A DNA stretch of 64,000 nucleotides, taken from positions 1 to 64,000 of IMG/VR virus record IMGVR_UViG_2802429331_000003. One strand, given 5' to 3'. The notes under the pieces are model-generated. The model was not told the DNA's origin. It was given only the letters and a program-made list of their open reading frames with translations, and made no database searches. This stretch comes from a virus. Taxonomy: Duplodnaviria > Heunggongvirae > Uroviricota > Caudoviricetes. Position numbers and translations under genes: made by a program. Numbering within the stretch: the stretch's first letter is position 1; each line of letters begins with the position of its first letter. This document shows, one piece after another, positions 6,748-37,403 of the stretch.

Positions 6748-7542
6748 TCAGGCGGCTTGGGTGCTGCTGGGCTGCCAGATTTCGCGGGCGGATGGCCCGA
6801 AGACGTTGGGGGCCTGGTCGCGTAGCTCGCGGCCGATCCATGCGGCGATGCGGCGCATTTCCTTATCGACACCGTCGGCATCGCGCTGGATGAGGAAGTC
6901 GATCCAGGCCCGGTAGTTGCCGGTGACAACGATGCGGGTTTCGGCGTTGCCGGGCAGGTGGGCGCGTGCGGCTTCGCGGGCTTCCTTGTGGCTCGCGCCG
7001 CGGCCTCGGTAGATGTCGACCCACTTGTGGTACTTCGACAGAGCTGCGCGGGCGCTCTGTTCGAGGTCGTGGATGGCCTCGGGGTCGTTCTCGTACAGCG
7101 GCGGGATGACGAAGTTGATCTCATCGGCGTCGACGTAGCGCTGGGAGAGTTCCGAACGCGGGATGTGGCGGTGGCGGATCAGTTCGTGGGTCAGCGAGCG
7201 GGAGACGCCGGTGATATAGAAGGTGGCGTTTGCGTGCTCAAGGACGCTCCAATGCTTCTGGCGCAGAATATTTTTCAGGTATCCGCGGGTGGTAGCGGTC
7301 TCGGGGTTCGGGCGCTCCCAGGACTGGTAGCAGGTGCGTCCAGCGAACACCGCCAGCTCTTCGCCGTCGTCGAGGGAGTCCTCTCCGAGGCTGTAGTCCG
7401 GGGTATCCGGGAGCCACAGGCTGGTGGTGGCGATCAGGGCTACATGGGGCTGCACGAACAAACTCACGGCCAGAACCCTATATCCCATGGAACGCTTGGA
7501 ACGGATGGCTTTACACCCTGAAGACGTGTCTATGTGTTGCAA
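6748..7542 (-). CDS. thyX: Flavin-dependent thymidylate synthase ThyX. The true start may be the internal MGYRVL at about 7488.
   Basis: ThyX signature RHRHIPRSELSQRY (RHR-x7-S-x-R) and surrounding HWSVLEHANATFYITGVSRSLTHELIRHR. Confidence 0.8.
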   Translation of the reverse strand: MQHIDTSSGCKAIRSKRSMGYRVLAVSLFVQPHVALIATTSLWLPDTPDYSLGEDSLDDGEELAVFAGRTCYQSWERPNPETATTRGYLKNILRQKHWSVLEHANATFYITGVSRSLTHELIRHRHIPRSELSQRYVDADEINFVIPPLYENDPEAIHDLEQSARAALSKYHKWVDIYRGRGASHKEAREAARAHLPGNAETRIVVTGNYRAWIDFLIQRDADGVDKEMRRIAAWIGRELRDQAPNVFGPSAREIWQPSSTQAA

Positions 7543-11364: not shown

Positions 11365-12201
11365 CTATCGCAGTACGTAGAAGGGGACTTTCGTCGATTC
11401 GTTGTAGTTGAGCGCCTTCTCCTCGATCGAGGCCGCCATGCCGCCGCCGCAGTAGCAGTACTGGGCGCGCGGGAACGCTTGACCAGCTGCGGGGTTGATC
11501 TTGTTCATCGTGATGCACAGGAAGGATGAACATGTCTGCCCGATGCCGGTGAGCTGCAACGTGGCGACCGCGAACACGTCGCCCTGCTTGGCGGTGATCG
11601 CGGTGCCCAGGTTGAATCGGTACTCGGTGTTGGTGGCGCCGAAGCTTCCGCGCATGTCTACTGCGGCCGAGATGGGATTGAGCAGTGTCAGATTCCCGGT
11701 TTTTGTGTCGACCGAATAGACGCCGATGTAGAAGCCGTTGATGCCGAACGCGGTGATCGAGCCGCCGGTGATGAACCCGACTTCCTTGTAGGTCCGATCC
11801 CGTTGCGCCTGTATGTATCCGATTTCGAGGCTGTTGAATCCGTGACCGGCGGGCTGGTAGTCGGGGACCTGTCGTAGCGAGTGGGAGTGGCTGCCGCTAT
11901 TTCCGCCGCCGGTGGAGGTCGACGATGCAGCACCGAAGGTGAGTTGGGAGCGCGGGAAGGTGGTGTCTTCGTTGACACCTAGTGACTGCCACATGGGCGA
12001 GTTGATCGGCACTTGCGACAGTGAGGGCTTGTCCGACAGCGGGTCGTCGACGTTCTGCTTCATGGCGCTGCGTGCGTCGGCGTAGGACTTCTTCACACCG
12101 CCGGTCATGAACGCGGTGGCTTTGTCTTTGTCGATGTCGAAGCCGTATTTGGTGCCGAACCGGAATGCACCGTCGGGCGGATTGCCGATAGGGAAGCTCA
12201 C
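11365..12201 (-). CDS. Gly-rich minor tail / tail-fiber-like protein (about 278 aa).
   Basis: GTG start preceded by GAGGGA RBS (rev-comp of 12199-12215); GTGA overlap with the upstream gene stop. The longer 447-aa ORF extension is Arg-rich junk. Confidence 0.55.
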   Translation of the reverse strand: MSFPIGNPPDGAFRFGTKYGFDIDKDKATAFMTGGVKKSYADARSAMKQNVDDPLSDKPSLSQVPINSPMWQSLGVNEDTTFPRSQLTFGAASSTSTGGGNSGSHSHSLRQVPDYQPAGHGFNSLEIGYIQAQRDRTYKEVGFITGGSITAFGINGFYIGVYSVDTKTGNLTLLNPISAAVDMRGSFGATNTEYRFNLGTAITAKQGDVFAVATLQLTGIGQTCSSFLCITMNKINPAAGQAFPRAQYCYCGGGMAASIEEKALNYNESTKVPFYVLR

Positions 12202-12611
12202 GGGGTGATCCCTCGCTTCTCGGCGTATTCGGCGAGCGCGGAACGCAATTCGGCGATCTCGACGCGGCTGGCAGTGAGTTCGGCCTTGGTGTCGGCAAGC
12301 TCGGTGCGTAGCTCTGCGATCTGGGATTGATAGCGGGCGGCGTCTTCGCGGGCCTGGGCCAGCACGCTGTCGAGTTGTGCGGCGACGCCGGAGAGCTGGA
12401 GCGATAGCAGCTCGACACGTTGATCGTTGAGGATGGCGGCAGCGGCCTCGATGCGGGCCTGGCGTTGAATGCGCCGCACCCGCGCCCCGGCCACGAATTC
12501 GATGACCGGGCGCAGGATCTCGCGGACCTTCGGCACGGCCGCCGCCGCGATCGTGAGGACCGCAACGGCGACCGACGCCCACACCACCCAGGGGTGACCG
12601 TCTACCGGCAT
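12198..12611 (-). CDS. Membrane-anchored coiled-coil protein (137 aa) in the lysis cassette; holin-accessory or spanin-like candidate.
   Basis: N-terminal TM segment WVVWASVAVAVLTIAAAAV followed by a heptad-rich Ala/Leu/Gln region. Confidence 0.45.
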   Translation of the reverse strand: MPVDGHPWVVWASVAVAVLTIAAAAVPKVREILRPVIEFVAGARVRRIQRQARIEAAAAILNDQRVELLSLQLSGVAAQLDSVLAQAREDAARYQSQIAELRTELADTKAELTASRVEIAELRSALAEYAEKRGITP

Positions 12612-12614
12612 CAG

Positions 12615-12824
12615 TTACCGAACCTTGTCCGCCAGCTGGTCGCCAGCGACGTTGGTCAGCAGCGAGATCAGCGCGGCCAGGCCGGCGGCGCTGACGCTGG
12701 CAGTCCAATCGGCGTCGAGCACGCCGGTGAACACCACCAGCGAACCGGCCAGCGACTGCGCGAACGTCTTCACCGCCCGCTTGCCGACGTCGAGCAGACC
12801 GTCACGGGTAAATACATCAGCCAT
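12615..12824 (-). CDS. Holin-like small membrane protein (69 aa).
   Basis: Two short hydrophobic segments; sits immediately downstream of the endolysin on the same strand. Confidence 0.45.
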   Translation of the reverse strand: MADVFTRDGLLDVGKRAVKTFAQSLAGSLVVFTGVLDADWTASVSAAGLAALISLLTNVAGDQLADKVR

Positions 12825-12847: not shown

Positions 12848-14230
12848 TCAGTTGGTCGGAACCCGATTGGGGCACTCGGTGACCGCGCAGGTACGCGCGC
12901 ACTCGGGCGGGGACAGCTCGGCGAGCTTGTCAACCACGGTCTTGTTGCCCAGCTGCGGCCAGCCACCGTACTGTCCGGCGTCGCGCTGGCCTGCGCCACA
13001 CAGCTGTTCACGAACGTCCTTGACGTCGTTGACGACGGGGCCGACGTAGGTGGCCAGGCATTCGTAGATCAGGGCCTTGAGTGCTTCTGGGGAGTAAGGC
13101 AAGTCATCCTCCTGTGTGCTGAATAGCGCTTCTAGTCCCGCGCGGGTGCCACGGAACGCATTGACGTCGAGTACGTATCCGGCGACCTGCCCCTTTTCGG
13201 AGAACTGGTAGACCGCTACGACGTTGCCGCCGTAGCCGCTCCAGCCGGGGTGGTCCTCGCCGGGGTAGAGCTCACTGGCGTAGCCGGTGCCGTCGACGTA
13301 GTGCGAGGACATCAGCGGCGGCAGACCGGACAGGTCCGGGCGCCCGATGTGGCCGTGCCAGAACCAGCGCGGCAGGTAAATCAGGATCACGCGGTAGCCG
13401 CGGGCGGTGAACTCGTCGACCACCGCGCGGGTGAGTTCGACTCCCCCGGAGCCGACTTCGACGTCGAGCATCACCGGAATGGCGCGGTCCGGCTCGGTAG
13501 CGGCGTAGTTGTCGACCTGCTCACGCGCCGAGATGCCTTCGCGGACATAGTGATAGGCCGCGAACAGCAGGCCGTTGGCCCGTGCTCCATCGCGCTGAGC
13601 GACGTATTCGGGGTTGACGTAGTCGCTGCCCTCGGTCGCCTTGGCGATGACGTAGGCGAAACCCTCGGCCTTCACTCGGGCCATGTCGAGGCCGCGCTGA
13701 TAGGACGCGATGTCGATGCCGAAATGTGTCTGCACGCGATCTCCAACCTGGGGTTGTTCTGGCTCCGGGCTGCCGGGCTCGGTGGCACCCAAGAGCCACG
13801 GCTGCGGGTCGATCTGGGAGCCGGCCGCCCATACGGTGGGATGCACCTCGAAATGCAAGTGGGGGCCGGTGGATTGGCCGTTGGAGCCGACGTAGCCGAT
13901 CAGCTGCCCTGCTTCGACCCGGTCACCGCGGCTCAGCCCGGTCGCGCCGGCGTCCCACATGTGGCCGTAGACCGTGGTACCGCCCCCGGATTCGGCTGGG
14001 TGGTCGATCACGATCCACTGGCCGAACCCGGACGCGGCGCCAATGTAGGCGACGGTGCCGGATTGGGCGGCGTAGAACGGAGTGCCGTCATTCGCGGCGA
14101 AGTCCAGGCCGAGATGGCTGGTGCCCCAGCGTGGCCCGAATCCGGACGCGATCGAGTAGGTCCCCTGCTTGAGGGGCATGCAGCGAACCAACGAGGAAAC
14201 TCCCACCAGGGCAGACGCAGCCGCGCGCAT
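12848..14230 (-). CDS. lysA: Endolysin (Lysin A): M23 peptidase + GH25 muramidase + C-terminal cell-wall-binding region.
   Basis: M23-like HLGLDFAANDGTPFYAAQSGTVAYIG...GHMWD; GH25-like GIDIASYQRGLDMARVKAEGFAYVIAKATEGSDYVNPEY. Confidence 0.8.
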   Translation of the reverse strand: MRAAASALVGVSSLVRCMPLKQGTYSIASGFGPRWGTSHLGLDFAANDGTPFYAAQSGTVAYIGAASGFGQWIVIDHPAESGGGTTVYGHMWDAGATGLSRGDRVEAGQLIGYVGSNGQSTGPHLHFEVHPTVWAAGSQIDPQPWLLGATEPGSPEPEQPQVGDRVQTHFGIDIASYQRGLDMARVKAEGFAYVIAKATEGSDYVNPEYVAQRDGARANGLLFAAYHYVREGISAREQVDNYAATEPDRAIPVMLDVEVGSGGVELTRAVVDEFTARGYRVILIYLPRWFWHGHIGRPDLSGLPPLMSSHYVDGTGYASELYPGEDHPGWSGYGGNVVAVYQFSEKGQVAGYVLDVNAFRGTRAGLEALFSTQEDDLPYSPEALKALIYECLATYVGPVVNDVKDVREQLCGAGQRDAGQYGGWPQLGNKTVVDKLAELSPPECARTCAVTECPNRVPTN

Positions 14231-14338: not shown

Positions 14339-14779
14339 TTACAGCTCTTCGGCGAAGTTGGTGGGCTCTTCTGGCTCGGGTAGGTAGCCGCCGGCCTTGA
14401 ACAGATCGAGCATGGCCGAGCGTTCCTGCACGGTCATGGCGTCCGGGCTGGGAAGCACGATCAGCTCTGGATCGGGGGTGTCCATAGGTACCCACTGGGT
14501 GGCGGGGTTCCACACATTGACCGGTCCACGCATGGGCCGTTGCAGCTTCTTGGTCTGCTTGGGCAGATCGTTGATGTCGATCTTGCCGTTGGCGTCAGCC
14601 AACCGTGCCAGCCATGGCGCCCACACGTAGCCGATCTCGACGAGATGCTTGGAGATGATCGCCGCCCAGGCCGGCGGGATACCGACGCCGCCGGGACCGA
14701 GGCCGGGCACGTTGATCAGGGCCGCGGCGAAGTGCTGCTCGGGGTCGTTGAAGTCGACGGTGTCGAAGGTCGAGTACAC
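14339..14779 (-). CDS. Minor tail protein (146 aa).
   Basis: Clean ORF between tail and lysis genes. Confidence 0.45.
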   Translation of the reverse strand: MYSTFDTVDFNDPEQHFAAALINVPGLGPGGVGIPPAWAAIISKHLVEIGYVWAPWLARLADANGKIDINDLPKQTKKLQRPMRGPVNVWNPATQWVPMDTPDPELIVLPSPDAMTVQERSAMLDLFKAGGYLPEPEEPTNFAEEL

Positions 14780-14807: not shown

Positions 14808-16448
14808 TCACAGCACGCCGAGATCCTGGATGAGGGAGATGATTTCGCGCAGCTGCTCCCACGCCTTGACAGCGGGGTCTTGGATCTCGCGCTGACCGAT
14901 GGTGATCTTCCAGCTGGGTGCCCGCTCGCGGTCCCAAGCCAATTCGATCTGCGATACCCGGTCGACGAACACTCTACCGGGGGGCATACCGCGGATCGTG
15001 GAGCCGATGCGGTCGCCCAGGTAGAAGTGACCGTAGCCGGGAGCGCCGATGAGGAAGGGAGCGCCGTCGGCGACGACCAGCTCGTGGCTGGTGGTTTCGC
15101 GGGTGCTCCACTGCCCCGAGCGCATTGCCAGCAACCAGCCGAGACTGTAGGCGCGATCAGCTCCTTCCTGAAACTTTTCATGGTAGAAGTGGTAGCCTAA
15201 TTTCCTTGCGCGGCTTTGGAATCGCCACTTGCCGAACGCGGCCAGCACGTCCGTGTACAGCGGCGCCAGCAGCCGGTCCAAAGCCCCACCAACCGGCGGG
15301 ATTACGACCGCAGCAGCAATCAGGTCACCTACGGTCTGGATCGCCGCTCCGATGACCTCGTTCACGCCCGGGGCGCTGTGGCCGCCCGCGATGACGCCGA
15401 CGTCGGTGGCGGGCCGAAATGTGAAGTCCGCGGTCTGGATTCCGGTGTGCGGGGAGTCTCGGTAGATGACCCAGGGGGCTTGGGCGAGGGTGCCGCGCCA
15501 TTCGGGGTCGTAGTACTCCGGCGGGATATTCGGGTCGGCGACGATGTCGATGCCCTTGTCCAGGCCGTCCTTGTCGATACCGAGCACGCCGTGGATCAGG
15601 CCGCCGAACAGGTCACCGAAGAACGACGTCGACTTGTAGGCGGAGCTCTTGTCTTCGAGGTCGATCACCAAGCAGCCCGGACGCAGCACCGCGCCCGGCC
15701 ACGGCGGTGGATCACCGGGCAGGTATCGGCGGAACGTCCAGGTCAGCTGGGCGTCGGCGACGATCTTCTTGCTGGCGTCGTGCACGGTCTTCATGCGCGC
15801 GATCACCAGCGCCGGCATCGAGGTGTCCAGGCCGATCGGGTCGGGTTTGACGACCATGGTCCACTGCGACTGATCGAAGTGCCCATAGGTAGCTGGGTCG
15901 AGCGGATCGTCGGGCAGGAACGTCCAGGCCCGCGTTTGCAAGCGCCAAATATTAAAGAAGAGAAGAAGTTTCAGAGCCCAGCGGGAGGGACCGAACAGGA
16001 AGAACCAGCGCGGGAACTGAAATTCGGGGGGCAAGAACGGGTTTGGGTAGCAGACGATGTGTTTGAGCTCTTCGTAGTCGTGCTTGAAGGCCATCGCCAG
16101 TGACCGTGTGCCGTCGTCAGCCACCCGGACCGAGAACGATTCCATGCGCCCTGACCAGCGGATTCCGTCTTTGTCGACGGTCAGGTGGATGTTGGAGGTG
16201 TCGCGGCCGTCGACGTTGACGACCCACTCGGCCAGCCAGTAGTCCATGGGTAGCTCGAGGTGTGCCATGCCCGTGTCGTTGTTGACCTCGGTGATGGCCG
16301 CAGACAGGATCCGAGTCACCTTGCCGCGCAGGTTGTAGTCGCCGTCCCACAGCCGCACCAGCGGCGGCGCGAGACGGCGGCGGCGCTCGTCCTGTTTCTG
16401 CGCAACGAAATTCGCGTACTCGAGTTCGAAATCGAATGCGGGCGCGCT
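14808..16448 (-). CDS. Minor tail protein (about 546 aa; Tal/baseplate-like).
   Basis: Real start MSAPAFDFELEYANFV overlaps the stop of the upstream gene (ATGA). The ORF-track 695-aa version carries an Arg-rich spurious N-terminal extension. Confidence 0.6.
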   Translation of the reverse strand, partial: SAPAFDFELEYANFVAQKQDERRRRLAPPLVRLWDGDYNLRGKVTRILSAAITEVNNDTGMAHLELPMDYWLAEWVVNVDGRDTSNIHLTVDKDGIRWSGRMESFSVRVADDGTRSLAMAFKHDYEELKHIVCYPNPFLPPEFQFPRWFFLFGPSRWALKLLLFFNIWRLQTRAWTFLPDDPLDPATYGHFDQSQWTMVVKPDPIGLDTSMPALVIARMKTVHDASKKIVADAQLTWTFRRYLPGDPPPWPGAVLRPGCLVIDLEDKSSAYKSTSFFGDLFGGLIHGVLGIDKDGLDKGIDIVADPNIPPEYYDPEWRGTLAQAPWVIYRDSPHTGIQTADFTFRPATDVGVIAGGHSAPGVNEVIGAAIQTVGDLIAAAVVIPPVGGALDRLLAPLYTDVLAAFGKWRFQSRARKLGYHFYHEKFQEGADRAYSLGWLLAMRSGQWSTRETTSHELVVADGAPFLIGAPGYGHFYLGDRIGSTIRGMPPGRVFVDRVSQIELAWDRERAPSWKITIGQREIQDPAVKAWEQLREIISLIQDLGVL

Positions 16449-17338
16449 CATTCCAGGCCCCACGGGCGCGACCAGTTGCGCTTGACCCGCACCTGCACCG
16501 ACGCACCCGGGCTGGCTTCCTCCACCGACACCGGCAACTGAATTGCCTTGGTGTAGGGCGGGATCGCGTAGTTGTAGGTCACGCCGTTCATCAGCGACCA
16601 CACCTGCGACCCGGCCGGATCGCGCAACATGTCCTCGAACGGATCGGTGTTGATCCAGAACGTCTGACCCGGCTTCTGCTTGGGCATCCTGATCCGCCGG
16701 GCGGCGTCGGCCTCGGCGCGTCCAAAGCTGTTGTCTCCGAACGAGTAGTCCGGGATGGTCCAGCGGGCGCCGCCTTGGAGGATCCACTCCAGCCACACCG
16801 GCTGATCGGTGGGGTTGTCGATGGTGACGAACCCGGACCCCGATGTACCCGAGGCCAGCACCCAGGTGTCGGTGTAGGGCTGTTCCTCGTACCACCAGGG
16901 ATCGCCGGCGCAGACGGTCATCACGACCTTGCCCGAGCGGATCAGGTTCGGGTCCTTCTCCGGCTTGAAGCTCGGCTGTTCGAGCAGCCGCACGTTCAGG
17001 TAGCGCCGGCCGGAGTCAGGGGTGGTGATCCACAGTTTGGAGTCGCGATCGTAGGCCCAGTTCTTGCGCCATTCCGAGTCGTTGATCTGCCACGAGCCGG
17101 TGTCGATGTCGTCGATCCAGACGCCGAACACGATGTCGCGCTTGAGGTATCGGTGCCCGGCGTAGCTGCCGCCGATCTGATGGGCGTGTTCGGTCCAGAT
17201 GGTTTTGACCGGGGCATCCCAGATACCGTCGACGTCGGTACCCAGGATCACGCCCTGCTCGCCCATGCCGGGGCCGGACAAGGTGAACCAGCTGCCCATG
17301 CAGCCTTCCACCTCGACCAGCGTTCGGTTGTCTTCCAC
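16448..17338 (-). CDS. Distal tail protein (Dit-like), 296 aa.
   Basis: Sits immediately downstream of the tape measure gene; size and position typical for siphovirus Dit. Confidence 0.55.
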   Translation of the reverse strand: MEDNRTLVEVEGCMGSWFTLSGPGMGEQGVILGTDVDGIWDAPVKTIWTEHAHQIGGSYAGHRYLKRDIVFGVWIDDIDTGSWQINDSEWRKNWAYDRDSKLWITTPDSGRRYLNVRLLEQPSFKPEKDPNLIRSGKVVMTVCAGDPWWYEEQPYTDTWVLASGTSGSGFVTIDNPTDQPVWLEWILQGGARWTIPDYSFGDNSFGRAEADAARRIRMPKQKPGQTFWINTDPFEDMLRDPAGSQVWSLMNGVTYNYAIPPYTKAIQLPVSVEEASPGASVQVRVKRNWSRPWGLE

Positions 17339-17389
17339 AGCGGGTTGCCGCCTATTCAGTTGTCGTATTCAGTTGTGTGCGTTGCGGTT

Positions 17390-20300
17390 TCAGCGGGTCA
17401 TGAACCCCGCGGCCTTCTGCTGCTGACGCAACGCGTTCTTGCGGAGCGCCTCGTCGATGTTGGTGACGTGGTAGTGGATGTGCTCCTCCACGACCTTCTG
17501 GGCGTTCTGCACCGCGGTCTGGGCATTTGCGCTCGCCTGCTGCGCGGCGGTGGTGATCGCTGCGCCCGGATTCGCCAGCGCCGCACGGGCGTCCTTGTAT
17601 CCGGGCACCCGGTTGCCCAGCTCGTAGTTGATGACCTGGTTGAGCTGGTTGTCGGAGTCGGTGGCCGCGGAGTACGCCTGCGAGAGGAATCCGGAGCCGC
17701 TGATGCCCAGGTCGCTGGTGAACTGGTCCCAGATCGCCTTGGTCGCAGAGCTTCCGGCCTTGCTCCAGATCGCCTGGTAGTGCGCCGGGTCGCGGGTGGT
17801 CTCGGCCGCCTTCTGGTACGCCTCGGCGGCCAGCTGATCCGCGGACTTTGCCGGGGCTTCCGTCGTGGCCGGGGTGTCCGTGGCCGGCTGCTCGGTGTTC
17901 CCGTTCTCGTCGGTCGTGGTGCCGTCGGCGTTGAGCACCGGGGTGGTCGCGTTCGGATCCGGGTTCTCGGGCTGGATATCGCCGTTGCTGTCACCGGTCG
18001 GTGTTTCGCCGTTCTCCAGCTCGCCGGTGACCAGGCCCTGATCGGCGTCCACTGTCGCGGGAGTTCCTGCGCCGGTACCGGTCTCGTTCGCCTTGCCCGA
18101 CGCGCCGCTGCCGCCGTTGCTGGCGCTCGCACCGCTGGTGTCCTTGGACTGGCTCGGATCGGTTTGCTTCGGCTTGCCCTGCTGCTTGGTGATCAGCTTG
18201 GCCGACTTCTTCAGGGCCTTCGCCGCGGCCCCGATGACCTTGGACAGCATCTCCACGAACGAGGCCGGACCGGTGGGCGTTGTGTAGCCCTCAAGCCCTG
18301 TGACCGAGCCCGCCAGCGCATTCAGCTGGCTGACCATGGTCTGCCATTGGTCGTTGGTGAACACGGGCTCAGGCTTGCCGGACATGTTCCAGCCCCAACC
18401 CATGTGCGGCAACCAGCCACCTTGGTCGTAGCCGTGACCCTGGCCCCACTGCGCGCCGAGGTCGTCGCCGTAGCGGGCACGGTAGTAGCGCAGCGCGGCG
18501 CTGATGTTCGCGTCCGGGTTCGTTCGGTCGTTCGGCAGTGACGGATTGCGGTATGCGGCAAAGGTTCCCGGGATCAGCTGAAGCAGGCCGACGCCTTCGT
18601 TTCCACCAGAGTTGACGTCCTTGATCTGCTGGATGATGTTCGGGTTGCCGCTGGACTCGGACTGGATCTGGGCCAGGGTGAGGCGGATGTTCCGCTCATC
18701 GGCGGTGAAGCCTTCGCGCTCGAGCGCTGCGATAACGTTGGGCCGCCACTGTTCTACGCCGGCGCTGATGTCGAACGGGGTGACTCCGGCATCCTGCGAT
18801 TTGCCGACCGCAGAAGAGACGGCGTCCATGACGGTCGAGAACGCAGCTCCAGCGATCTGCTCGATGCCCGAGTTGCCCAGTTTGGGCATCTGCGCTTTGA
18901 CCTTCTCCATGGGCTGGAGCAGCAGCTCCTGAATCTTGCCCGTCGCCGCGGTGAGCGCGGACCCGTCGCCAGTAGGCATGACCGAGCCCGACACATCGCC
19001 TAGGGCCTTCTCCAACGCCCAGTGCACGTGGGAAACGTGCTGAGCCATCGTGTCGGCGCCGAACCTGGCCATGCCGTCACCGACATCAGTGAAGTCGTCG
19101 ATGTTGTGGTTGAACGGCGAGTGGATCAGCTCGCGGGTGCTGGTCAAGAAGTTGGAGGCGATCCACGCCGCCAGCTTTTGCATGGCCGGGGTGTCGGTGG
19201 TGCCGTCGCTGAAGTCGCCGGCCTGCCCGGTCGAATGAAATGAACCGGGCTCGTTGCGGTAGCCCGAGGTGAGCTGCATCCCGGGAAACCGTTCCTTGAT
19301 GGCCGATTCCATCGAGCCGACGATGCCGCCGGTGGCGAACGCACCACCGAACGTGGTCCCCGCCATCTGAGCCTGGACTGCGGGCACGCCGCCAGCGCGG
19401 GCCGCGGCGTTCATGCCGTGGATCCAGTCCGACCCGACCGCCCGGGTGAACTCGGGGCGCATGATCGCCTCACCACCGCCGACAGCGATGGTGGTGGTGT
19501 CCCGGTTCGGGGTGTAGCCGGGGATGATGCCGCCGGTCCAGTAGCCGCCGCTGATCCCCGTCAGCTCTGCGTCCCACTGCGGCAGCGATGGCAGGACCGT
19601 GCGCACCGAATTCCAGGCGTTCTTCAGCGCGACGAACGCGGTGGTAATGATCCAGCTGATCGGATCTGCCACTGCCTTTTTCACCCCGGCGAATGAGGTG
19701 GTGATGTTGGTCGGCGCGGAGGAGAACTTGGTCTCCATGTCGCCGACGGCCTTGGTCAGGGTCGGCAGGATGGTGTCGGTCAGATTTTTGACGTGGCCGT
19801 CGATTCCGGTGACCAGGCCCTGCCACGCTTTGAGTGCTCCGGTCTCGCCGAGATGTTCGGTGAACTTGGTTTGCAGCGTCGCGATTGCGCCGCTGAGATC
19901 GTCGACTTTCGGCTTGGCGTTCTCGGTTGCGGTCTTGGTGTCGTCGAGTCCCTTTGCGACCTTGCCCATTTCGGTGGCGACGTCGCCGAACGAGGTCTTG
20001 AGCTTGTTGACCACGTCGAGCAGCTCGTTGTACGCCTTGGTGGTCGGCGCCAGATCGGGCTGCTGCTGTGCGGCGGGCTGGCTGGCCTTGGGGTCGACCG
20101 CGGGGGCAGGCTGCCCGGTCTTGGGATCGACTGCCGGGGCGACCTGACCATTCGCGGGCTGCTGCTGACCGTTCGGGACGGTGCCGACCGCCGGGGCGGC
20201 CACGGCGGGCAGGCCCCCGGGCACGCCCAGCGGGTTGTTCTGTGCTGCGGCATTACCTGCCTTGGCGGTCAACAGGTTTCGCAGTGACGCGTCATCGAGG

Positions 20301-23300
20301 CCGTATGCGGCCAGCAGCGCATTGAGCTGCGTTTCGTCTGTGATGCCGGTCTTCGCGCCGATTTGCGCCTGGTAGCCAGCGAGCAGGGTCCGCGTCTTGG
20401 CCTCGGCGGTATTGATGGCGGCTTCGACGTTGCGGGTCGGGTCGGCGTTGAGGGCCTGCACGATCTCGCTGGAGGCCATCGTGTCCAGGCCGGTCTGCGC
20501 GGCTTGGATCGCTTCGAGAAGGGCGCGACCGTTCGCCGACTCCTCGTTGACGAGGTTGCCGCCGGTGTAGGAAGCGCCACCCGAGTCCTCGAACTGGAGG
20601 CCCTTGAGGTTGTCGAGCGCGGCGAACGCGCCGGCGCGGCTGTTCTGAAAGATGTTGGTGTTGCCGCGCTGTTTGGCCAGTTCGCCAGCGAGTTTCGCGA
20701 CCGCGTCGGAGGCTTCGAGGTTGCCGTCGCGCAGCTTGTCGATGGTGTCCTTGAGGCGGCTGGCCGCGGACTGGTTGTCCAGGAACTCCTTTCGGAGCTT
20801 GGAGAGCCGGTCGGTCGCGTTCTTGACCGCCTGGTCGGTGTCACCGTCGTGTTTGAGGCCCGCGACGAACTCGTTGAACCTCGATTGGGTACCGAGGATC
20901 GCGTCGTTGATCTCGGTGTCGCTGTAGTCGTCGAGGACGCCCTTGATGTCCTCGTTTTCCTTCGCGGACTTGTTGCGGTCCCGGTAGAACTGCTGGCGCT
21001 TCTGGTAGTCCTCCTGCTTCTCGATCCAGTGCGAGGGGCGCAGGTTGTCCCAGAACTGGTCGCTGTTGCTGTACTTGCCCTTGATCTGGTCGTCGATCTC
21101 GGCGCGGAAATCCTTGACCGCGCCGAGCTGGGTGCCGCGGACGCCGTCGTCGACGAGTCCATCGGAGTTGTTCAGGGCGCTCTTGATGTCGGTGGCGTAG
21201 GTCTTGCGGAACTCGGCGTGGTCCTTGATGGACTGCTTGAAGTCCGCTTCCTTTTGGTTCAGCTCGTCGAGCTTGCCCGTGAAGTAGGAGAACCCGGCCG
21301 CCGCGGCGGTGAACGCCAAAGTCCATGGGCCACCGAGGGTTTCAACCACACCGGAAAGCCCGGACCTCACCGAGGACAGCGCAGATGCGGCCCGGCCGGG
21401 CAGTGCATCGAAGCTGCGGCCAACGGTATCGCGCATGGCGGTGGCGCGGGTGAGGACGCCACGCTGGAAGGTGTCGTAGCCGTTGGTGGTGCGGTCGAAC
21501 GAATTCTGCGCCGCGGTGTGGCTTTCACTCCAAACGCGCTTGAAGTCGCTCAGCAGCCCCGAAAGGCCGCTCCTGGCGCTGCGGGCGGCGTTCGTGGCAG
21601 CGTTTGCGGTGTCGCGCGCCGCGCTGCCCATCGCGCTACCGAGGGATGCGCCCTCGCGGCGGCCGGTCGCAGCAGTCTCGGCAGCCTGACGGCGGCCCGT
21701 CCGCGAGGCAGCGTCGGCCTGATTCTGCACGGCCTTGCTGGACCGCTTGCCCTGGCTTTCGGCAGCCTGACTGGCACCCTCGGCTTGTTTACGGGTTGCC
21801 TCGGATGCGGCTGCCGCCTGCTGGTTGATCGCCTGGGATGCGGTGCTGGCCTGCCGGGAAACAGACTCGGATGCGGTCTTGGCGGCACCGCTGGTGCTGT
21901 CCAGATCAGCCTTCGCCTGTGCCGCAGCGGGATTGGGTTGTGCGGTGCCAGTTCCACCCCGAGGGGTCTGTCCATCGGTTCCCTGGACGCCGGTAACGAT
22001 GTCGCTGGTGTCGAACTCATCGGCCCGGCCGGCGGCGGAGTCGGTCGGTATGAAGGTGACCGGCTCGAACTTCTTGGGCAGCTGGCCGCGGCGGACCGCG
22101 CGACCCCGGCGACGCCGTTGCGCCTGCTGGGTCTGGCTGGGTCCGCTCTTGCGGGGGGTGCGGGGTGTCCGCTTCTTGCGGTCGTTCTGGTCGGCAGTTG
22201 GCGACGAGGCGCTGTCGTCTCCACCATCGGCTGCACCGCCAGCACTACCGGCCTCCGCGGAGGTCTTCTTCTTGTCGTCGCTGTCTTCGGCTTCGGATTC
22301 GAGAGCGAGGTCCAGGACGGAACCGGGCTCGCCGCCGGCGCCCTCGGCGTCGTCCTTGTTCTTCTTGCCCTTCTTCTTTTTCTTCTTCTTGCCGTCGCGC
22401 GAGCCGTCGGCGTCGGCGTCGGCCGCGGGCAGGCCGTTAACTCGCTGGGAGGAGTCCTCGGTGGTCTTGACGAATCCGACGATGGTGCGGCCGAGGTTCT
22501 GGAAGACGCCGGTCAAGGTGCGCAGCGCGAAGAACCCGACCAGCACGGTCAGCAGGGCGTTGAGGCCATCGCCGAGCCCGGTCACGCTCATGACGGCGGT
22601 GGCGAGAGTCGCGAAGGCGTTCGCGACGTCGGCCAGGACCTTCAGCGTCTGGCCGCCCATGGTCTGAATGGCGTCGCCGAACAGCGCGTTGAACAGCCCT
22701 GCGATGCCGCCGACGAGCCGCCGGATATCGGCGAGGATCTCCGAGACACGCCCGAAGACGGACTGGATCTTCGCCGCGCCCTCAGCGGATTTGGTCCATT
22801 CTTCGAATCGGGCAGTCGATTGGACAAGGCTGCCCATCATGGAGTCGCCCTCGCCGCGCAGTGCCGCGAAGAATCCGCGCACGCCGCCGAAGGTGTTGCC
22901 GACGACCTGGCCGAGCTGCTGCATCTTCTCGATGCCCTGGTTGATCGAGTAGTTCAGCTCGCCGGTCTGGCGCTTGAGGTCGATCTTTTCTGACCAGCGC
23001 GTAGCCACGGTGTTGATGGCCTGGCCCAGGCTCGGCAGGACTGCGGAACCCGCGGTGGTGAGGTCGACGAAGATCTTCGTCAGCGGGGTGGCGGCGCTGC
23101 TGAGACCGCGGAACATGCCGGAGGTGTTCGACAGGAAGGTGTTGAAGTCGTTGATCGACTTCGGCTCGCTGAATACCTTCAGCGAGTTCTTGATTCCGCC
23201 GTTGATCTCGGAGTTGATCGCGGCCAGGCCCAGACTCAGGGTCGGCAGCTGCTTGCGCGAAACGTCGGCGATGGCCTTGCCGAGGCCGTTGGTCAGCGCG

Positions 23301-25948
23301 TCCTGCGAGGTCTTGCGTAGCTGGGTCCACTCCGGGCCGAGCGCGCGGATCTGGTCGACGAGGTCTTTCGCGTTGGGCGAGAGCTTCTTGTAGACCTTCT
23401 CGAATTGCTCGCCGAGCCCGGAGTTGCCGAGCTTCTCGAGGATTCGTTTCTGGTCGTCGAGAGCGTTCTGGTAGTTGCGGGCGGCCCGTTCGGCGCGCTT
23501 GTTGGCGTCCTCGTTGGCTTGGGCGACCGACTCGGCCACGTCCTTGAGCCGCTGCTGAGACTCAACCAGCGAGCCATTCGCGTCAACCAGTGCCTTCCGA
23601 GCGGCGATAACGTCTTCGTCGCCCTCGATGCCGTCCTTGTTGGCCTTGGCGGCGGCGTCGACTTCCTTCTTGTTGTTCTTCTGGACTTCTTCGAGGTTGA
23701 AGCTGGCCTGCTCGGCGTCGATCTGCGCCTGGGCGATGTCGATCCAACTGGCGTTCGGATCGGCGGCGGTCTTGATGACGTTCTGGCCGGCCTTGAGCGC
23801 GGACAGGGCGGCGCTGCGTTCGTCGAGGGAGTTGTCGCGCAGTGCGTCATTGAGGTCGCGGATCTTTTCCGCCGCGTTCTCTCGCGCCTTATTCAGGTTC
23901 TCCTGCGCGGTCTTCGTGCGGTCTAGTGCTGACTGCACCGACTTCTCGGCCGAAGCGATCTGGCGCGCGCCGGAAACTGCTGTGCGGTCGGCGTTTTCGC
24001 GTGCGTCCGCGAGCGAGTCATAGGTGTCGGCCACCTTTTCGGCGGCGTCCTGCTGCTTGTTGGCGACATCAGCGGCCGATTCGCCCGCGTCCTTGGCGGC
24101 CTTGAACGCGCCGATGATGCCACTGCCGCCGACGGCCAACGCGGCGATACCGGCACCGGCGGCGGTGATGATGGCGGGCAGCGTGGCCAGTGCGGAGGCG
24201 GCCTGCGCGGCGGAGGAGATCAGGGGCAGCAGGTTGACTGCGCCCATGGCAGCCAGCGCCGCAGCGGAAGTGGTGGCGATCTGGCCGATCGACGACAGGT
24301 AGCGACCTGCGTAGATGAGTTTGCTGTTGAGCTCTTCGAGCCAATTGCCGGTACCGGCGTCGAGGCGTTCGGTGAGCCGCAGAAATGGGTTGGACCGTTC
24401 GCGGCGGTCGAGTCCGCCGCTGGCTTCGCTGTATCGGGTCCGGGCGACAGCAGTACGGGAGACGTTGCGTTTGAGGCTGGTGTCGGCCTTGTCGCGGTCG
24501 AGGATGGCCGCCTTCAGCTCGCGTTCAGCGGCAGTGCGGCGTGTGATCGAGGAGGTGGCGTCGTTGTCGACTTGGTATTTGGTCAGGGATGCGGCTGCGA
24601 CGCGCTCATTGGCGGTCTTGACGCGGTCTTCGAGCAGTTTGGCTTCCTGCTCAAGGACATCGAGGTCGGCGGCGGCCTGTTTGGCGCGGTTGATGGCGTA
24701 GTAGTCAGCGCCGCTGAGCCGTCGGTTCTTGCCGTTGCTCTTGGTGCGCAGCGCGTTCTCGCGTTGGGAGATCTTGCGCAGGTTCTCGTTGGGGTCACCG
24801 TCGGCGGGAACGAGACCCATCTGCGCGCGCATGGCGGCTTCGGTGTCGCGGCGGGCTTTCGCCATCGCCTTCTTGTCGATGTCCTTGGTGGACACCGACT
24901 GTCGGAACTGGTCGCGCAGTTTGTCGGCGTCCTTGCGGGCCTGTACGAGCGCGGCTTGGGTTTCGGTGGCGCGCTTGCGCGAGGCCGCAGCAGCGTCGCT
25001 TGTGCGGTCGAATGCGGCCTGCGCCTTGGAGAGCTTGGCGCTGTCGCCCTTGACCTCAGCTTCTGCCAGGCCGCGGATCGTCTGGCGGACTGCGTGATCG
25101 GCCTTCTTGACCGACGTCCACGCAACGGCGGCTTCGCGGACGAGTTTGTCTTGCGTGCGGGCAGCTTTGGACCATGCCTTGGCGCGGCGCTCGGTGGTTT
25201 CGGTCAGCTTGCCGGCACCGGCGATCTCGTCTTCGACCTTGGCCTCGTAGCCGCGCAGCGCCTTGGCGGCGCGCTTGCCGGCGGGCTTAAGCGCCTCGCG
25301 AAGCTCCTTCTCCCTGCCCGCGACCTTTTCGGCGAAGTCGTTCGCTTCGCGGGTGCGGGTGGTCTTCTTCTTCTGGGCCCGGACGTCTTCGTCGGCGTAG
25401 CGTTCCTGGCGCGCTGCACGCGAGTCAGCGCGCCGAGCTGCACGTGCGGCGGCCCGGCGGGCCTGGTCGTTGCGATCCTCTTGGGCCTTGATCTGTTCAC
25501 GACCGGTCGCGCGGTTCTTCGCGGCGTTGGTGGTGTTGGCCGCCTTGCCCTGCTTGATCTTCAGGTCGTCGGCGAGGATCCTCTGGACATTGAGGCCCTT
25601 GCCCGTCGTTTTGCGGACCTCGTCCTTGAATGCCTTGGACCACGCCTTGGCGAAAGTGCGGCCGAATAGGTCACCTTCGGTGGAAGCGTCGCGGCGGATA
25701 CGCGAGAGCTCGTCGCCGAGATGCTTTTCGCGTTCTCGGCTGGACCTGGCGTGGTCGGCGTCGCTGCGAGCCTTTCCCGCAATGTCGCCCTCGCGGTCGG
25801 CCTGCTTCCGGGCGGCGGCCTCGCGGTCGCGGTTGTTCTTGCCTTCGTTGGCGACCGGGGTGTTCTTGACACCGCGCTCCACGTCCTTGAGGAAGTCGGT
25901 CATGTCTGCGCCGACAGCGATCTTTACGTGACCAGCGATCAGAGACAT
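17390..25948 (-). CDS. Tape measure protein, 2852 aa, with embedded lytic transglycosylase (SLT-like) and M15-like zinc-peptidase motifs.
   Basis: Ala/Glu/Lys/Arg coiled-coil N-terminal half; Gly/Ala hydrophobic repeats; poly-Lys tract GKKKKKKKGKKNKDD; SLT-like LTLAQIQSESSGNPNIIQQI...GVGLLQLIPGTFAAYR; M15-like SGYRNEPGSFHSTGQAGDFS...HSPFNH. Located between the chaperone genes and Dit. Confidence 0.85.
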   Translation of the reverse strand: MSLIAGHVKIAVGADMTDFLKDVERGVKNTPVANEGKNNRDREAAARKQADREGDIAGKARSDADHARSSREREKHLGDELSRIRRDASTEGDLFGRTFAKAWSKAFKDEVRKTTGKGLNVQRILADDLKIKQGKAANTTNAAKNRATGREQIKAQEDRNDQARRAAARAARRADSRAARQERYADEDVRAQKKKTTRTREANDFAEKVAGREKELREALKPAGKRAAKALRGYEAKVEDEIAGAGKLTETTERRAKAWSKAARTQDKLVREAAVAWTSVKKADHAVRQTIRGLAEAEVKGDSAKLSKAQAAFDRTSDAAAASRKRATETQAALVQARKDADKLRDQFRQSVSTKDIDKKAMAKARRDTEAAMRAQMGLVPADGDPNENLRKISQRENALRTKSNGKNRRLSGADYYAINRAKQAAADLDVLEQEAKLLEDRVKTANERVAAASLTKYQVDNDATSSITRRTAAERELKAAILDRDKADTSLKRNVSRTAVARTRYSEASGGLDRRERSNPFLRLTERLDAGTGNWLEELNSKLIYAGRYLSSIGQIATTSAAALAAMGAVNLLPLISSAAQAASALATLPAIITAAGAGIAALAVGGSGIIGAFKAAKDAGESAADVANKQQDAAEKVADTYDSLADARENADRTAVSGARQIASAEKSVQSALDRTKTAQENLNKARENAAEKIRDLNDALRDNSLDERSAALSALKAGQNVIKTAADPNASWIDIAQAQIDAEQASFNLEEVQKNNKKEVDAAAKANKDGIEGDEDVIAARKALVDANGSLVESQQRLKDVAESVAQANEDANKRAERAARNYQNALDDQKRILEKLGNSGLGEQFEKVYKKLSPNAKDLVDQIRALGPEWTQLRKTSQDALTNGLGKAIADVSRKQLPTLSLGLAAINSEINGGIKNSLKVFSEPKSINDFNTFLSNTSGMFRGLSSAATPLTKIFVDLTTAGSAVLPSLGQAINTVATRWSEKIDLKRQTGELNYSINQGIEKMQQLGQVVGNTFGGVRGFFAALRGEGDSMMGSLVQSTARFEEWTKSAEGAAKIQSVFGRVSEILADIRRLVGGIAGLFNALFGDAIQTMGGQTLKVLADVANAFATLATAVMSVTGLGDGLNALLTVLVGFFALRTLTGVFQNLGRTIVGFVKTTEDSSQRVNGLPAADADADGSRDGKKKKKKKGKKNKDDAEGAGGEPGSVLDLALESEAEDSDDKKKTSAEAGSAGGAADGGDDSASSPTADQNDRKKRTPRTPRKSGPSQTQQAQRRRRGRAVRRGQLPKKFEPVTFIPTDSAAGRADEFDTSDIVTGVQGTDGQTPRGGTGTAQPNPAAAQAKADLDSTSGAAKTASESVSRQASTASQAINQQAAAASEATRKQAEGASQAAESQGKRSSKAVQNQADAASRTGRRQAAETAATGRREGASLGSAMGSAARDTANAATNAARSARSGLSGLLSDFKRVWSESHTAAQNSFDRTTNGYDTFQRGVLTRATAMRDTVGRSFDALPGRAASALSSVRSGLSGVVETLGGPWTLAFTAAAAGFSYFTGKLDELNQKEADFKQSIKDHAEFRKTYATDIKSALNNSDGLVDDGVRGTQLGAVKDFRAEIDDQIKGKYSNSDQFWDNLRPSHWIEKQEDYQKRQQFYRDRNKSAKENEDIKGVLDDYSDTEINDAILGTQSRFNEFVAGLKHDGDTDQAVKNATDRLSKLRKEFLDNQSAASRLKDTIDKLRDGNLEASDAVAKLAGELAKQRGNTNIFQNSRAGAFAALDNLKGLQFEDSGGASYTGGNLVNEESANGRALLEAIQAAQTGLDTMASSEIVQALNADPTRNVEAAINTAEAKTRTLLAGYQAQIGAKTGITDETQLNALLAAYGLDDASLRNLLTAKAGNAAAQNNPLGVPGGLPAVAAPAVGTVPNGQQQPANGQVAPAVDPKTGQPAPAVDPKASQPAAQQQPDLAPTTKAYNELLDVVNKLKTSFGDVATEMGKVAKGLDDTKTATENAKPKVDDLSGAIATLQTKFTEHLGETGALKAWQGLVTGIDGHVKNLTDTILPTLTKAVGDMETKFSSAPTNITTSFAGVKKAVADPISWIITTAFVALKNAWNSVRTVLPSLPQWDAELTGISGGYWTGGIIPGYTPNRDTTTIAVGGGEAIMRPEFTRAVGSDWIHGMNAAARAGGVPAVQAQMAGTTFGGAFATGGIVGSMESAIKERFPGMQLTSGYRNEPGSFHSTGQAGDFSDGTTDTPAMQKLAAWIASNFLTSTRELIHSPFNHNIDDFTDVGDGMARFGADTMAQHVSHVHWALEKALGDVSGSVMPTGDGSALTAATGKIQELLLQPMEKVKAQMPKLGNSGIEQIAGAAFSTVMDAVSSAVGKSQDAGVTPFDISAGVEQWRPNVIAALEREGFTADERNIRLTLAQIQSESSGNPNIIQQIKDVNSGGNEGVGLLQLIPGTFAAYRNPSLPNDRTNPDANISAALRYYRARYGDDLGAQWGQGHGYDQGGWLPHMGWGWNMSGKPEPVFTNDQWQTMVSQLNALAGSVTGLEGYTTPTGPASFVEMLSKVIGAAAKALKKSAKLITKQQGKPKQTDPSQSKDTSGASASNGGSGASGKANETGTGAGTPATVDADQGLVTGELENGETPTGDSNGDIQPENPDPNATTPVLNADGTTTDENGNTEQPATDTPATTEAPAKSADQLAAEAYQKAAETTRDPAHYQAIWSKAGSSATKAIWDQFTSDLGISGSGFLSQAYSAATDSDNQLNQVINYELGNRVPGYKDARAALANPGAAITTAAQQASANAQTAVQNAQKVVEEHIHYHVTNIDEALRKNALRQQQKAAGFMTR

Positions 25949-25979: not shown

Positions 25980-26845
25980 TCAGAACCCGAACGCGGCCTC
26001 GGCAGCCTTCGCGCGTTCGCGTTCGCGGCGGGAGTGGATGACGTCGACTGCGGAGACCGGGCGTGGCATCGGCTCGGGCCGCGGCGGGGTCTTGCCCGGC
26101 GGCAGGTTGACCGCGATGAGAGTGGTGTTGAGGTTCTGCAACAGATCCGCGATCGTCAGCAGAAGGTGAGCGTTGAGGTCGTAGCCAGCCGAGGACCGCA
26201 TGACCGGGTCGGCGTCTTCGGATGTGGCCCCGGCCTGTTGGGCTTCGTTGGCTTCCTCGAGACGGACCAGGTGCTCAGCCAGGTCCATGTCCATCGCCTG
26301 GGAGGCGCGGTAGCGAGAGCCATCGGGGAGCTGCCGCAGGAAACGGGAGAGTTTGGCCCACGGCAGCTCACCGCGAAAGAAGTCGAGCAGGTCAACGCCC
26401 CAGTAGGCGTGCAGATCCCACTCGATGGCCTCGTAGTGCTTCTCGATGAGCGCTACGAGGCCGAGTCGCCCCCCGGGAATTCCTCGGCACCGCCATCGGC
26501 GCCCTTGTTGAAATGCCGGTTGATGTCCTCGATCAGCGCGAGGGTGACATCGAGGGGCTGGTCGCGCAGCGCGTCCCAGACCTTGGCGAAGGCGGCCTCA
26601 CCGACGAGCGCGGCCAGCATCTCCGGCAGGTCATCGGGTTCGACGCTGCCGGCCTCGTCAGACAGGCGAGCCAGCATCAGCTGCCGCTCCAGGCCGGTCG
26701 GCGGGGTGATCAGCACCGGCGGGTCGTAGGCGTCGAACACGTACGGCTCGAACTGCTTACGGTCCTTGGTGGCCTCGCGGACCAGGCGAGCCCAGTTCGA
26801 CTCGGACGATGCGGACGACTTCTTCTGGGCCTTGGTGGCAGCCAT
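25980..26845 (-). CDS. Tail assembly chaperone -1 frameshift fusion (G-T-like).
   Basis: Downstream ORF 25980..26294 is in the -1 frame relative to 26453..26845 (end-coordinate mod 3 goes 1 to 2 on the minus strand). A G6 run (ccc ggg ggg cga) lies at the end of the upstream ORF. Confidence 0.5.
26453..26845 (-). CDS. Tail assembly chaperone (G-like), 130 aa.
   Basis: Sits between the major tail and tape measure genes; ends just downstream of the slippery CCCGGGGGGC. Confidence 0.6.
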   Translation of the reverse strand: MAATKAQKKSSASSESNWARLVREATKDRKQFEPYVFDAYDPPVLITPPTGLERQLMLARLSDEAGSVEPDDLPEMLAALVGEAAFAKVWDALRDQPLDVTLALIEDINRHFNKGADGGAEEFPGGDSAS

Positions 26846-27217: not shown

Positions 27218-27931
27218 TTACGCCGCGGCGGTGAAGCCCGCCTTACCCGCCAGGGCCTTCCAGCCGGGGCCGGCCAGGACGGTCTTGATGGCGTAGCCGG
27301 TGGACTCGTCGAGCTTGGCCGAGGCGGTGAAGCCGTAGGAGATCACCTCGTCCTGCTTCCAGGACTGCTCGTTCACTTCGGTGATGGTCATCTTGGGCAC
27401 CACCTTGATCACGTAGGTGGTAGTCGGGCCGGCACCGTCGACGCCGATGAAGATGCCGCGGTGGTAGGTGATCGAGGGCGCGGTCGGGTCCGCGAATTCG
27501 GTCTCACCGGTGATCGGGTTGTACTTCACGTTCGACAGGTCCCGGTTGTGGAACAGCTGAAGGTTGTGTCGGTGGGTTTCCTGGCCGGTCCAGGCGATCT
27601 TGGTGGTTCGCTTGGTGACGTCGGTTCGCGCGGACTCGAGCAGACCCCACGCCTCTACTTCGGAGGTCTCGGTCTCCGGGGTGAAGGTGGGCGCGCCTTC
27701 CTTGGAGACGTGCCCCAGCGAGGTGAAGCCCGCGGACTTCAGGTCCAGCAGGTCCGCGGTGGCGCCCGTGGTGAATGCGGCCGGGACATCCACCGACATG
27801 GGCGCGACGAACACCGCACCGGAGAGCGGCTTGAGCAGCAGCGACTGCTTCAGATCGCGCATTACGTTGAGATCCGGCATCCCGGCCTCCCTATTCAGTT
27901 GTGTATTCAGTTGTGGGGGTGGAACTTTCAA
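27218..27931 (-). CDS. Major tail protein (237 aa).
   Basis: Position upstream of chaperone/TMP; size and beta-rich composition. Confidence 0.6.
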   Translation of the reverse strand: MKVPPPQLNTQLNREAGMPDLNVMRDLKQSLLLKPLSGAVFVAPMSVDVPAAFTTGATADLLDLKSAGFTSLGHVSKEGAPTFTPETETSEVEAWGLLESARTDVTKRTTKIAWTGQETHRHNLQLFHNRDLSNVKYNPITGETEFADPTAPSITYHRGIFIGVDGAGPTTTYVIKVVPKMTITEVNEQSWKQDEVISYGFTASAKLDESTGYAIKTVLAGPGWKALAGKAGFTAAA

Positions 27932-36765: not shown

Positions 36766-37236
36766 TCACGCGCCCTTCAGCAGCCGTGCCCGTCGCTCCT
36801 CGGCGAAGCTGACCACCTGCTTCCCGGCAGTCGGCGCATCCTCGTCTTCCTCGTCGATGACCGGCTTGATTCGAACCCGCGCCCGCGCGAGGTCATCCTC
36901 TGTAAGACGAAGTGCCGCACCGAGAGTCGAGGTGACGGCCTTATAGTTTTCGCTCCCGGGTCGCGAGAGATAGCGTTCGATCAGCGGAAGCGTCACCCAC
37001 AGCTGGAACCAGGTGCCGGCGCCATACAGGCGGGCCTGCGGCAGCGCCGCGAGGTGCTCGTAGATCGCACGCCCGGTCGGCCCCACGGTGATCCACTCAG
37101 GGATCTCGGGGATCTCGCCGTCGTGCGGGGTCGGGTCGATCTCGGTCCAGCCGTCACCGGTGACGAACGGATCGGCGTTGCGCCGCAGCCTCTCGTCCGG
37201 GTTCTTCGGCGGTGGACCGCTTCTGCGTCCAGCCAT
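36766..37236 (-). CDS. terS: Terminase small subunit, P27 family (about 156 aa).
   Basis: Start MAGRRSGPPPKNPDERLRRN characteristic of P27-family small terminases; classic HNH / P27 / TerL module. Confidence 0.65.
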   Translation of the reverse strand: MAGRRSGPPPKNPDERLRRNADPFVTGDGWTEIDPTPHDGEIPEIPEWITVGPTGRAIYEHLAALPQARLYGAGTWFQLWVTLPLIERYLSRPGSENYKAVTSTLGAALRLTEDDLARARVRIKPVIDEEDEDAPTAGKQVVSFAEERRARLLKGA

Positions 37237-37403
37237 ATTGAGTTGTGCTCCCGTGTCGGGGTAGAGCCGCTCCCCACCGCGGGCAGCCACCATGGCGGCG
37301 CCACCTGCGATACGGCGGTACGGATTCGCGCGTTGGTTTCACCCGCTTCACACACGCGAGCTGGCAGACGCGCCCCTGCCAAGCTGTGGATTCGGGGAAA
37401 GAG

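Follow-up and report, generated by a model that had tools for sequence, protein, structure and literature searches.

A 2852-residue tape measure protein with predicted Mt3/VldE-type peptidase and SLT lytic transglycosylase domains in a Nocardia terpenica prophage

Pb2 of T5 and CwlP of SPbeta (Bacillus) are tape measure or tape-measure-like proteins that both determine length and carry muralytic domains. In Pb2 there are, in addition, segments that insert into the membrane, and CwlP combines an SLT domain with a LAS-type (M23) peptidase. Their peptidase families and hosts differ from those of the protein that is the subject of this report, the tape measure protein of a predicted prophage of Nocardia terpenica. 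It is encoded in a window of 64,000 nucleotides, which is the whole stretch analysed (positions 1 to 64,000 of the IMG/VR record IMGVR_UViG_2802429331_000003). A precedent is the phage TM4, where the Mt3 region of the tape measure protein gp17 hydrolyses peptidoglycan, counts toward tail length and aids the infection of stationary-phase cells; its deletion led to shorter tails and halved the plating on stationary-phase cells (PMC1796659). This motif 3 of TM4 gave its name to the MT3 domain of the Streptococcus pneumoniae protein VldE, an L,D-endopeptidase of the LAS fold (clan MD) that cleaves the L-Ala-D-iGln bond and has an M15-like active site with the zinc ligands H301, D308 and H375 and the residues R294 and H373 (PMC11667670). 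For the Gordonia phages Hotorobo and Monty, whose tape measure genes have 9984 bp and whose tails are about 540 nm long, gene length has been linked to tail length (PMC4982279).

The best explanation of the N. terpenica locus, to which we assign a probability of roughly 85%, is that a siphovirus prophage encodes a tape measure protein with a C-terminal peptidase and SLT module, which would act in both assembly and ejection. The gene starts with ATG on the minus strand and was read by ORF listing and translation as 2852 residues without an internal stop, which is the single uninterrupted 8.56-kb reading frame of the initial annotation. Matches were obtained to eleven PHROG families with a tape measure or tail protein annotation, the best being phrog_7025 (E 2.9e-193, profile length 2880), and the solved phage tape measure protein gp16 (PDB 8zdo) matched residues 752-1068 (E 1.4e-24). 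On the minus strand the genes follow in the order major tail protein, G, G-T with a slippery site, tape measure, Dit-like and Tal-like (Table 1). This is the canonical position that had been claimed, after the G/G-T chaperones and before the gene at the Dit position, where the Dit match itself is weak. The PHROG families, the gp16 match and the gene order together make the earlier prediction of a tape measure protein a solid one.

The motifs of two cell-wall enzymes that had been noted in the C-terminal third were all present, in the reverse order of the listing, with the peptidase motif on the N-terminal side of SLT. The peptidase motif SGYRNEPGSFHSTGQAGDFS covers residues 2228-2247 and HVSHVHWA residues 2304-2311. 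The predicted active-site residues are R2231, the zinc ligands H2238, D2245 and H2309, and the catalytic H2307, together with H2304. When the whole protein and the isolated peptidase region were scanned with the Pfam and NCBIfam models, no peptidase family was found. Pfam Peptidase_M15 was matched neither by the excised domain at E<=10 nor, at E<=1, by the whole protein or by 15 phage homologues, and phmmer with the single domain sequence gave no match in the PDB. A profile made from an alignment of 15 phage sequences matched the C-terminal MT3 domain of VldE (Spr1875; PDB 9FLH-9FLN) with E 4.9e-7, a link that was seen only with the profile. The same profile aligned to residues 760-888 of TM4 gp17, the published Mt3 region, with the R, H-x6-D and HxH residues in register (single-sequence E 4.2e-6); this match is weak at 12.8 bits, and a Pfam scan of TM4 gp17 had no model for Mt3.

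The spacing of the residues R2231-x6-H2238-x6-D2245 and H2304-x2-H2307-x-H2309 equals that of R294/H301/D308 and H370/H373/H375 in VldE. The predicted structure of the domain has the LAS fold with the H-x6-D...H zinc site and the transition-state arginine, as in the MT3 domain of VldE. We therefore assign it, as a prediction from profile and model, to the Mt3/VldE type of LAS peptidases (clan MD) and not to the Pfam M15 family. Of the M15-like peptidase proposed in the initial annotation, the fold and the active site stood, whereas the expected Pfam Peptidase_M15 match was not obtained. VldE is a cellular LysM-anchored septal hydrolase and not a virion protein, and its acidic D372 is a serine in the N. 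terpenica protein, so the N. terpenica domain may lack the four-zinc reservoir state.

The SLT motifs are QSESSGNP (residues 2429-2436), GLLQLIPGTFAAY (residues 2454-2466) and GLLQLIPGTF, which contains the GLxQ motif. The PF01464 match that had been expected was found above the cut-off (Table 1), and the homologue P0166 from Nocardia sp. NPDC127526 scored 38 bits with the same model; phmmer of the SLT region against the PDB gave no match. E2431 in the first motif, the candidate catalytic glutamate, was invariant across 7 Nocardia homologues. Residues 2422-2510 are accordingly listed as a predicted SLT lytic transglycosylase (PF01464, GH23), which would cleave glycan strands. An alignment of 7 Nocardia tape measure proteins, this one included, from which all block conservation values given here were taken, showed the enzymatic module to be the most conserved part, with 0.55-0.74 identity in residues 2201-2300 and 2401-2550. 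The N-terminal and central regions had identities of 0.03-0.25.

Residues 2207-2317 were compared by tblastn and gave matches in 135 phage records, with Gordonia, Mycobacterium, Rhodococcus and Corynebacterium as hosts; among the matches listed, all but one lay in an annotated tape measure gene. The exception was the best phage match, an 867-residue 'virion structural protein' of the 139-kb Rhodococcus phage Finch (NC_054724.1, 41336-43939, 51% identity). Word-indexed homologue searches returned 8 and 15 matches only, and the size of the family became visible with the exhaustive HMMER search: the domain profile matched at least 4787 clusters (50% identity) at E<=1e-3 and 2952 at E<=1e-10, mostly of tape measure size. 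The best 146 new representatives had a median length of 1253 and a maximum of 2823 residues. A further observation was made with P0039, a metagenome protein of 2676 residues from ENA, which has one clear Mt3-like domain (residues 1532-1655, E 2.3e-30) and two more divergent partial matches, each ending with HQDHVH (near residues 2074 and 2585); it may carry several LAS-type domains.

Fourteen phage loci were then inspected, and in seven of them (ChewyVIII, CL31, Poland, Braxoaddie, Sadboi, Lumos and PSonyx) an Mt3-like domain is followed by SLT. In the first six, the E-S/T and GL.Q motifs were seen by eye in the tape measure translations; the PSonyx locus stops short of them. Rem711 has the SLT domain before the Mt3-like domain. 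Because the same order occurs in half of the loci, the dual-lysin module is recurrent in the tape measures of phages of mycolic-acid actinobacteria. Among isolated phages, the C-terminal lytic module was matched most closely by the tape measures of the Rhodococcus phage ChewyVIII (1614 residues) and the Corynebacterium phage CL31 (2276 residues), with 77% and 58% identity in the SLT region, 42% in the peptidase and the same domain order, whereas these tape measures are much shorter and their remainder is weakly similar or unrelated. Of the Gordonia phages Hotorobo, Monty, Woes and Poland, the two inspected, Hotorobo and Poland, both have the Mt3-like domain, and in Poland the SLT domain follows at about the same spacing; the identities are 32-34% in the peptidase and 47% in the SLT region. 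TM4 gp17 shares the LAS-type zinc peptidase motif inside the tape measure, but has only 1229 residues and no SLT domain found by Pfam. Both cell-wall enzyme domains claimed for the N. terpenica protein were thus recovered, with activities that are predicted, in an arrangement already known from phages.

The length of the protein predicts a tail of about 428 nm at 0.15 nm per residue and of 463-471 nm at 0.162-0.165 nm per residue, the scaling of Hotorobo and Katyusha. Giant siphovirus tape measures are likewise found in Hotorobo, Monty, Woes and Poland (3321-3327 residues, with tails of about 540 nm in the first three), which are longer than the N. terpenica protein and belong to lytic phages, whereas the N. 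terpenica element is a prophage. The Poland gene has 9966 bp and encodes 3321 residues. Katyusha has a gene of 9084 bp and 500-nm tails, and the GMA7 gene has 9141 bp (PMC4919401); for P74-26 a tail of nearly 1 µm is stated (PMC10034513). The proposal of a tail of 400 nm or more was in line with our estimate of about 430-470 nm; its placing at the extreme upper end of siphoviruses was not, since Hotorobo, Monty, Katyusha and P74-26 have longer ones. Neither the length nor the two lysins are new, because the order of Mt3-like domain and SLT recurs, including in the 3321-residue protein of Poland, which is related to the Gordonia phages whose tails measure 540 nm.

Table 1. Features of the tape measure gene and its neighbours in the N. 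terpenica prophage (window coordinates; functions are predicted).
Feature	Coordinates	Strand	Basis
Tape measure protein gene	17390..25948	minus	ORF; PHROG tape-measure families; 8zdo; uniform GC3 (GC content at third codon positions); identical protein in two assemblies
Hydrophobic Ala/Gly-rich segment, residues 559-615	24104..24274	minus	Kyte-Doolittle 19-residue windows >1.5
Second hydrophobic segment, residues 1104-1150	22499..22639	minus	Kyte-Doolittle windows up to 1.91
Charged low-complexity insert, residues ~1151-1450	21599..22498	minus	Composition; alignment gaps; holds poly-Lys (22349-22393) and an Arg-rich tract
33-nucleotide tandem repeat, 2.1 copies, Pro/Ala/Gln linker	20072..20140	minus	Encodes APAVDPK(T/A)(G/S)QP twice; Tandem Repeats Finder and translation
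Motif GGIIPGYTPxRD...GGGEAIMRPEFTRAVG, residues 2137-2175, ahead of the lytic module	19424..19540	minus	Identity 0.61-0.62 among Nocardia homologues
Mt3-type (VldE-like) LAS zinc peptidase domain, residues 2207-2312	19013..19330	minus	
SLT domain, residues 2422-2510	18419..18685	minus	Pfam PF01464, E 5.9e-8, 32.7 bits against a cut-off of 21.3
Conserved extreme C-terminus, residues 2801-2852 (...VVEEHIHYHVTNIDEALRKNA...)	17393..17548	minus	Identity 0.59 among homologues; near-identical in homologue P0172
Major tail protein	27218..27931	minus	phrog_476, E 3e-60; Pfam Phage_TTP_17 on record
Tail assembly chaperone G	26453..26845	minus	phrog_11681, E 3.8e-22
T part of G-T chaperone	25980..26477	minus	-1 frameshift at slippery run CCCGGGGGGC (26477-26468); phrog_2624 positions 171-257
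Minor tail protein, Dit position	16448..17338	minus	phrog_106, E 5.4e-93; weak Dit match phrog_33, E 8.9e-4
Tal-like minor tail protein (Sipho_Gp37)	14808..16451	minus	phrog_110, E 5.4e-181; 547 residues, PF14594 on record

Several points weigh against our explanation of the locus. The prophage is known from sequence alone, so tail length, virion formation and inducibility are predictions, and the tail length is a rough figure, since globular or disordered segments need not add 0.15 nm per residue. The capsid protein has its best match among isolated phages in Arthrobacter phages at 53% identity, so that there is no characterised close relative whose properties could be carried over. The peptidase domain is recognised by no Pfam M15 model; its identity to VldE is about 20%, so the bond specificity may differ; and the position of the essential Trp853 of TM4 aligns with a residue read from the sequence as histidine.

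The alternative that survives best is a cryptic or defective prophage, in which the gene never builds a tail and tail length and ejection role are moot. An integrase and attachment sites were not identified in the analysis of the window, the right half of the window has apparently cellular genes (aldo-keto reductase, B12/radical SAM), and no isolated phage is close. Megablast of the tape measure gene against 50,697 phage records found no close relative (coverage <=3%), and pattern scans of genome and viral contigs with the C-terminal 501 residues found no relatives. The inspected structural genes, however, are without exception intact and follow the canonical order, and this extends to the programmed frameshift site, where the T frame is open from 26597 as the -1 frame of G and the heptamers CCCGGGG and GGGGGGC are in register. 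The terminase (35056-36759), portal and capsid genes lie further upstream of the tail genes. Prophages of the Nocardia strains NPDC004722, NPDC127526 and CA-128927 have capsid and terminase proteins with more than 90% identity to those found here, indicating recent mobility, and the catalytic residues are conserved. We consider a defective element unlikely and read the locus as a putative siphovirus-type prophage in the N. terpenica chromosome, without a close cultured relative.

The missing Pfam peptidase match, the low identity to the solved enzyme and the histidine in place of the functionally important W853 would also suit a second alternative, that the pattern SGYR...H...D...HxH is a degenerate, non-catalytic remnant serving as a structural spacer of the ruler, with SLT as the only lytic activity. 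The conservation of the domain argues against it. The 15-sequence phage alignment has nine invariant columns, six of which hold the residues R, H-x6-D and H-x2-H-x-H for catalysis and metal binding; the same six positions are invariant in 7 Nocardia homologues. The peptidase domain is among the best conserved blocks of the protein (identity 0.55-0.69), and its predicted model is confident and superposes on VldE with 2.5 Å over 96 residues. A non-catalytic remnant is therefore very unlikely, and we retain the prediction of an active zinc peptidase.

That an error of sequencing or assembly had fused a tape measure gene with a lysin gene lying downstream, as the initial annotation had asked and as the unusual protein length and the position of the lytic domains in the last quarter, where a separate lysin gene would be, might suggest, is hardly conceivable and was excluded because the GC3 is 0.69-0.95 in each 100-codon block, no in-frame start led by a Shine-Dalgarno-like sequence was found in a scan of the whole ORF, two independent N. 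terpenica assemblies contain the identical 2852-residue protein, colinear homologues with the same order occur in five other Nocardia, and the seven isolated-phage loci with the Mt3-like domain before SLT have both in one frame of a single annotated tape measure gene. The two assemblies, one of them GCA_001625105.1, where the gene is on a scaffold of 4.64 Mb, were found by exact protein and cluster look-up, and the database entries are WP_156674640.1 and NQE86656.1. The homologue P0166 has 2823 residues and is 61% identical and colinear from end to end in one alignment of 2882 columns; the four others (2498-2664 residues) are from Nocardia sp. CA-128927, Nocardia sp. FBN12, N. fluminea and N. 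pseudobrasiliensis. A 2837-residue version, KZM72200.1, has its start placed at M16. M1 is favoured, since the first 20 residues are identical between the 2852-residue protein and P0166. As far as sequence can show, the reading frame is a real, single gene and not an assembly artefact. Two long ORFs on the plus strand lie antisense over the tape measure gene (16436-18541, 701 residues; 20363-22993, 876 residues) and are interpreted as shadow ORFs typical of a gene with high GC3.

Two hydrophobic segments, as found here, are usual for tape measure proteins, and both are candidates for membrane insertion. The first belongs to the best conserved blocks among the Nocardia homologues, with identities of 0.62 in residues 551-600 and 0.45 in residues 601-650. 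The N-terminal 540 residues are rich in Ala, Arg, Lys, Asp and Glu (36-42% charged) and are not sequence repeats. True tandem coiled-coil repeats were rejected: where very long repeats had been described, Tandem Repeats Finder found only three short arrays, of 33 nucleotides in 2.1 copies and of 12 nucleotides in 2.9 and 2.7 copies. The GGIIPGYTPxRD motif ahead of the lytic module was also found in metagenomic proteins with other domains after it, for example NlpC/P60 in P0006, and this occurrence before differing domains points to a conserved linker, after which the lytic domain can be exchanged. The extreme C-terminus is a candidate for the docking end at the tail tip.

The charged insert follows directly after the second hydrophobic segment and has poly-Lys, acidic and poly-Arg tracts. 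The poly-Lys tract, which had been reported before, is GKKKKKKKGKKNKDD at residues 1186-1200 and is encoded by a run of AAG. The tract is not unusual, because homorepeats were reported in 95.5% of tape measure proteins in a recent survey (PMC13585406). In the alignment of the 7 Nocardia proteins the insert region had a gap fraction of 0.58-0.90 and an identity of 0.03-0.15; it is mostly absent from 5 of the 6 homologues and shortened in P0166. The excess over the related Nocardia prophage tape measures (2498-2664 residues) comes mainly from this insert of about 300 residues. The insert is most likely a length spacer. It is distinctly unlikely that it is more than this. In such a case it could have expanded recently as a module prone to slippage, by which the tail length is tuned between sister prophages (2498 to 2852 residues), or, as a polyelectrolyte, it could bind the leading end of the DNA or aid the ejected protein across the mycolic-acid envelope. 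If either were true, this lineage of Nocardia prophages would be a natural series for how disordered inserts count in the ruler.

Further genes were observed around the tail region. A 460-residue homologue of M23-peptidase endolysins (12848-14230, minus; phrog_3084, E 1.1e-147; NCBI 'peptidoglycan DD-metalloendopeptidase family protein') is followed by 12615-12824 (minus, 69 residues) and 12198-12611 (minus, 137 residues), both with transmembrane-like segments, which in the 137-residue protein stand N-terminal with a helical tail behind. This apparent lysis cassette is flanked by genes with a minor tail protein annotation, upstream by 14339-14779 and downstream by about 11365-12190 and 8883-10661. 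Past the tail-fibre genes on the same strand are genes for an SPFH/Band_7 protein and for a ThyX thymidylate synthase (4534-5433 and 6748-7542, minus), which are probably accessory genes of the prophage. Upstream of the terminase gene and just past the short reading frame 36766-37293 stands a tRNA-Trp gene (37403-37477, minus), which may be a tRNA of the phage or else mark the integration site and with it the prophage boundary; to its right lie the cellular-looking genes for the aldo-keto reductase and the B12/radical-SAM protein.

From established tape measure biology and from the cited TM4 and VldE experiments, with TM4 as the precedent, we infer how the protein would work if the prophage is expressed. 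During assembly, copies of the protein would fill the tail tube, held by G and G-T, and would set the tail length at about 430-470 nm, with the conserved C-terminus docked at the tail tip. At infection the tape measure protein would be expelled ahead of the DNA. The Mt3/VldE-type zinc peptidase would then cut the stem peptides and the SLT lytic transglycosylase the glycan strands, both locally, and the two hydrophobic segments would insert in the membrane, forming a conduit for the DNA.

This class of protein is already known from Gordonia, Rhodococcus and Mycobacterium phages, and the N. terpenica tape measure is unusually long and otherwise ordinary. The main value of the finding lies in the annotation. 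The NCBI name of WP_156674640.1 is only 'transglycosylase SLT domain-containing protein', and Pfam has no model for the Mt3 peptidase in spite of its at least 4787 clusters. With the VldE structure of 2024, such embedded domains can be given the name LAS/clan MD L,D-endopeptidase-like. In addition, the locus adds a lineage of temperate Nocardia phages with predicted tails of about 400-470 nm and a putative virion-borne pair of peptidase and transglycosylase, which raises no new question and fits what is known about the phages of mycolic-acid bacteria.

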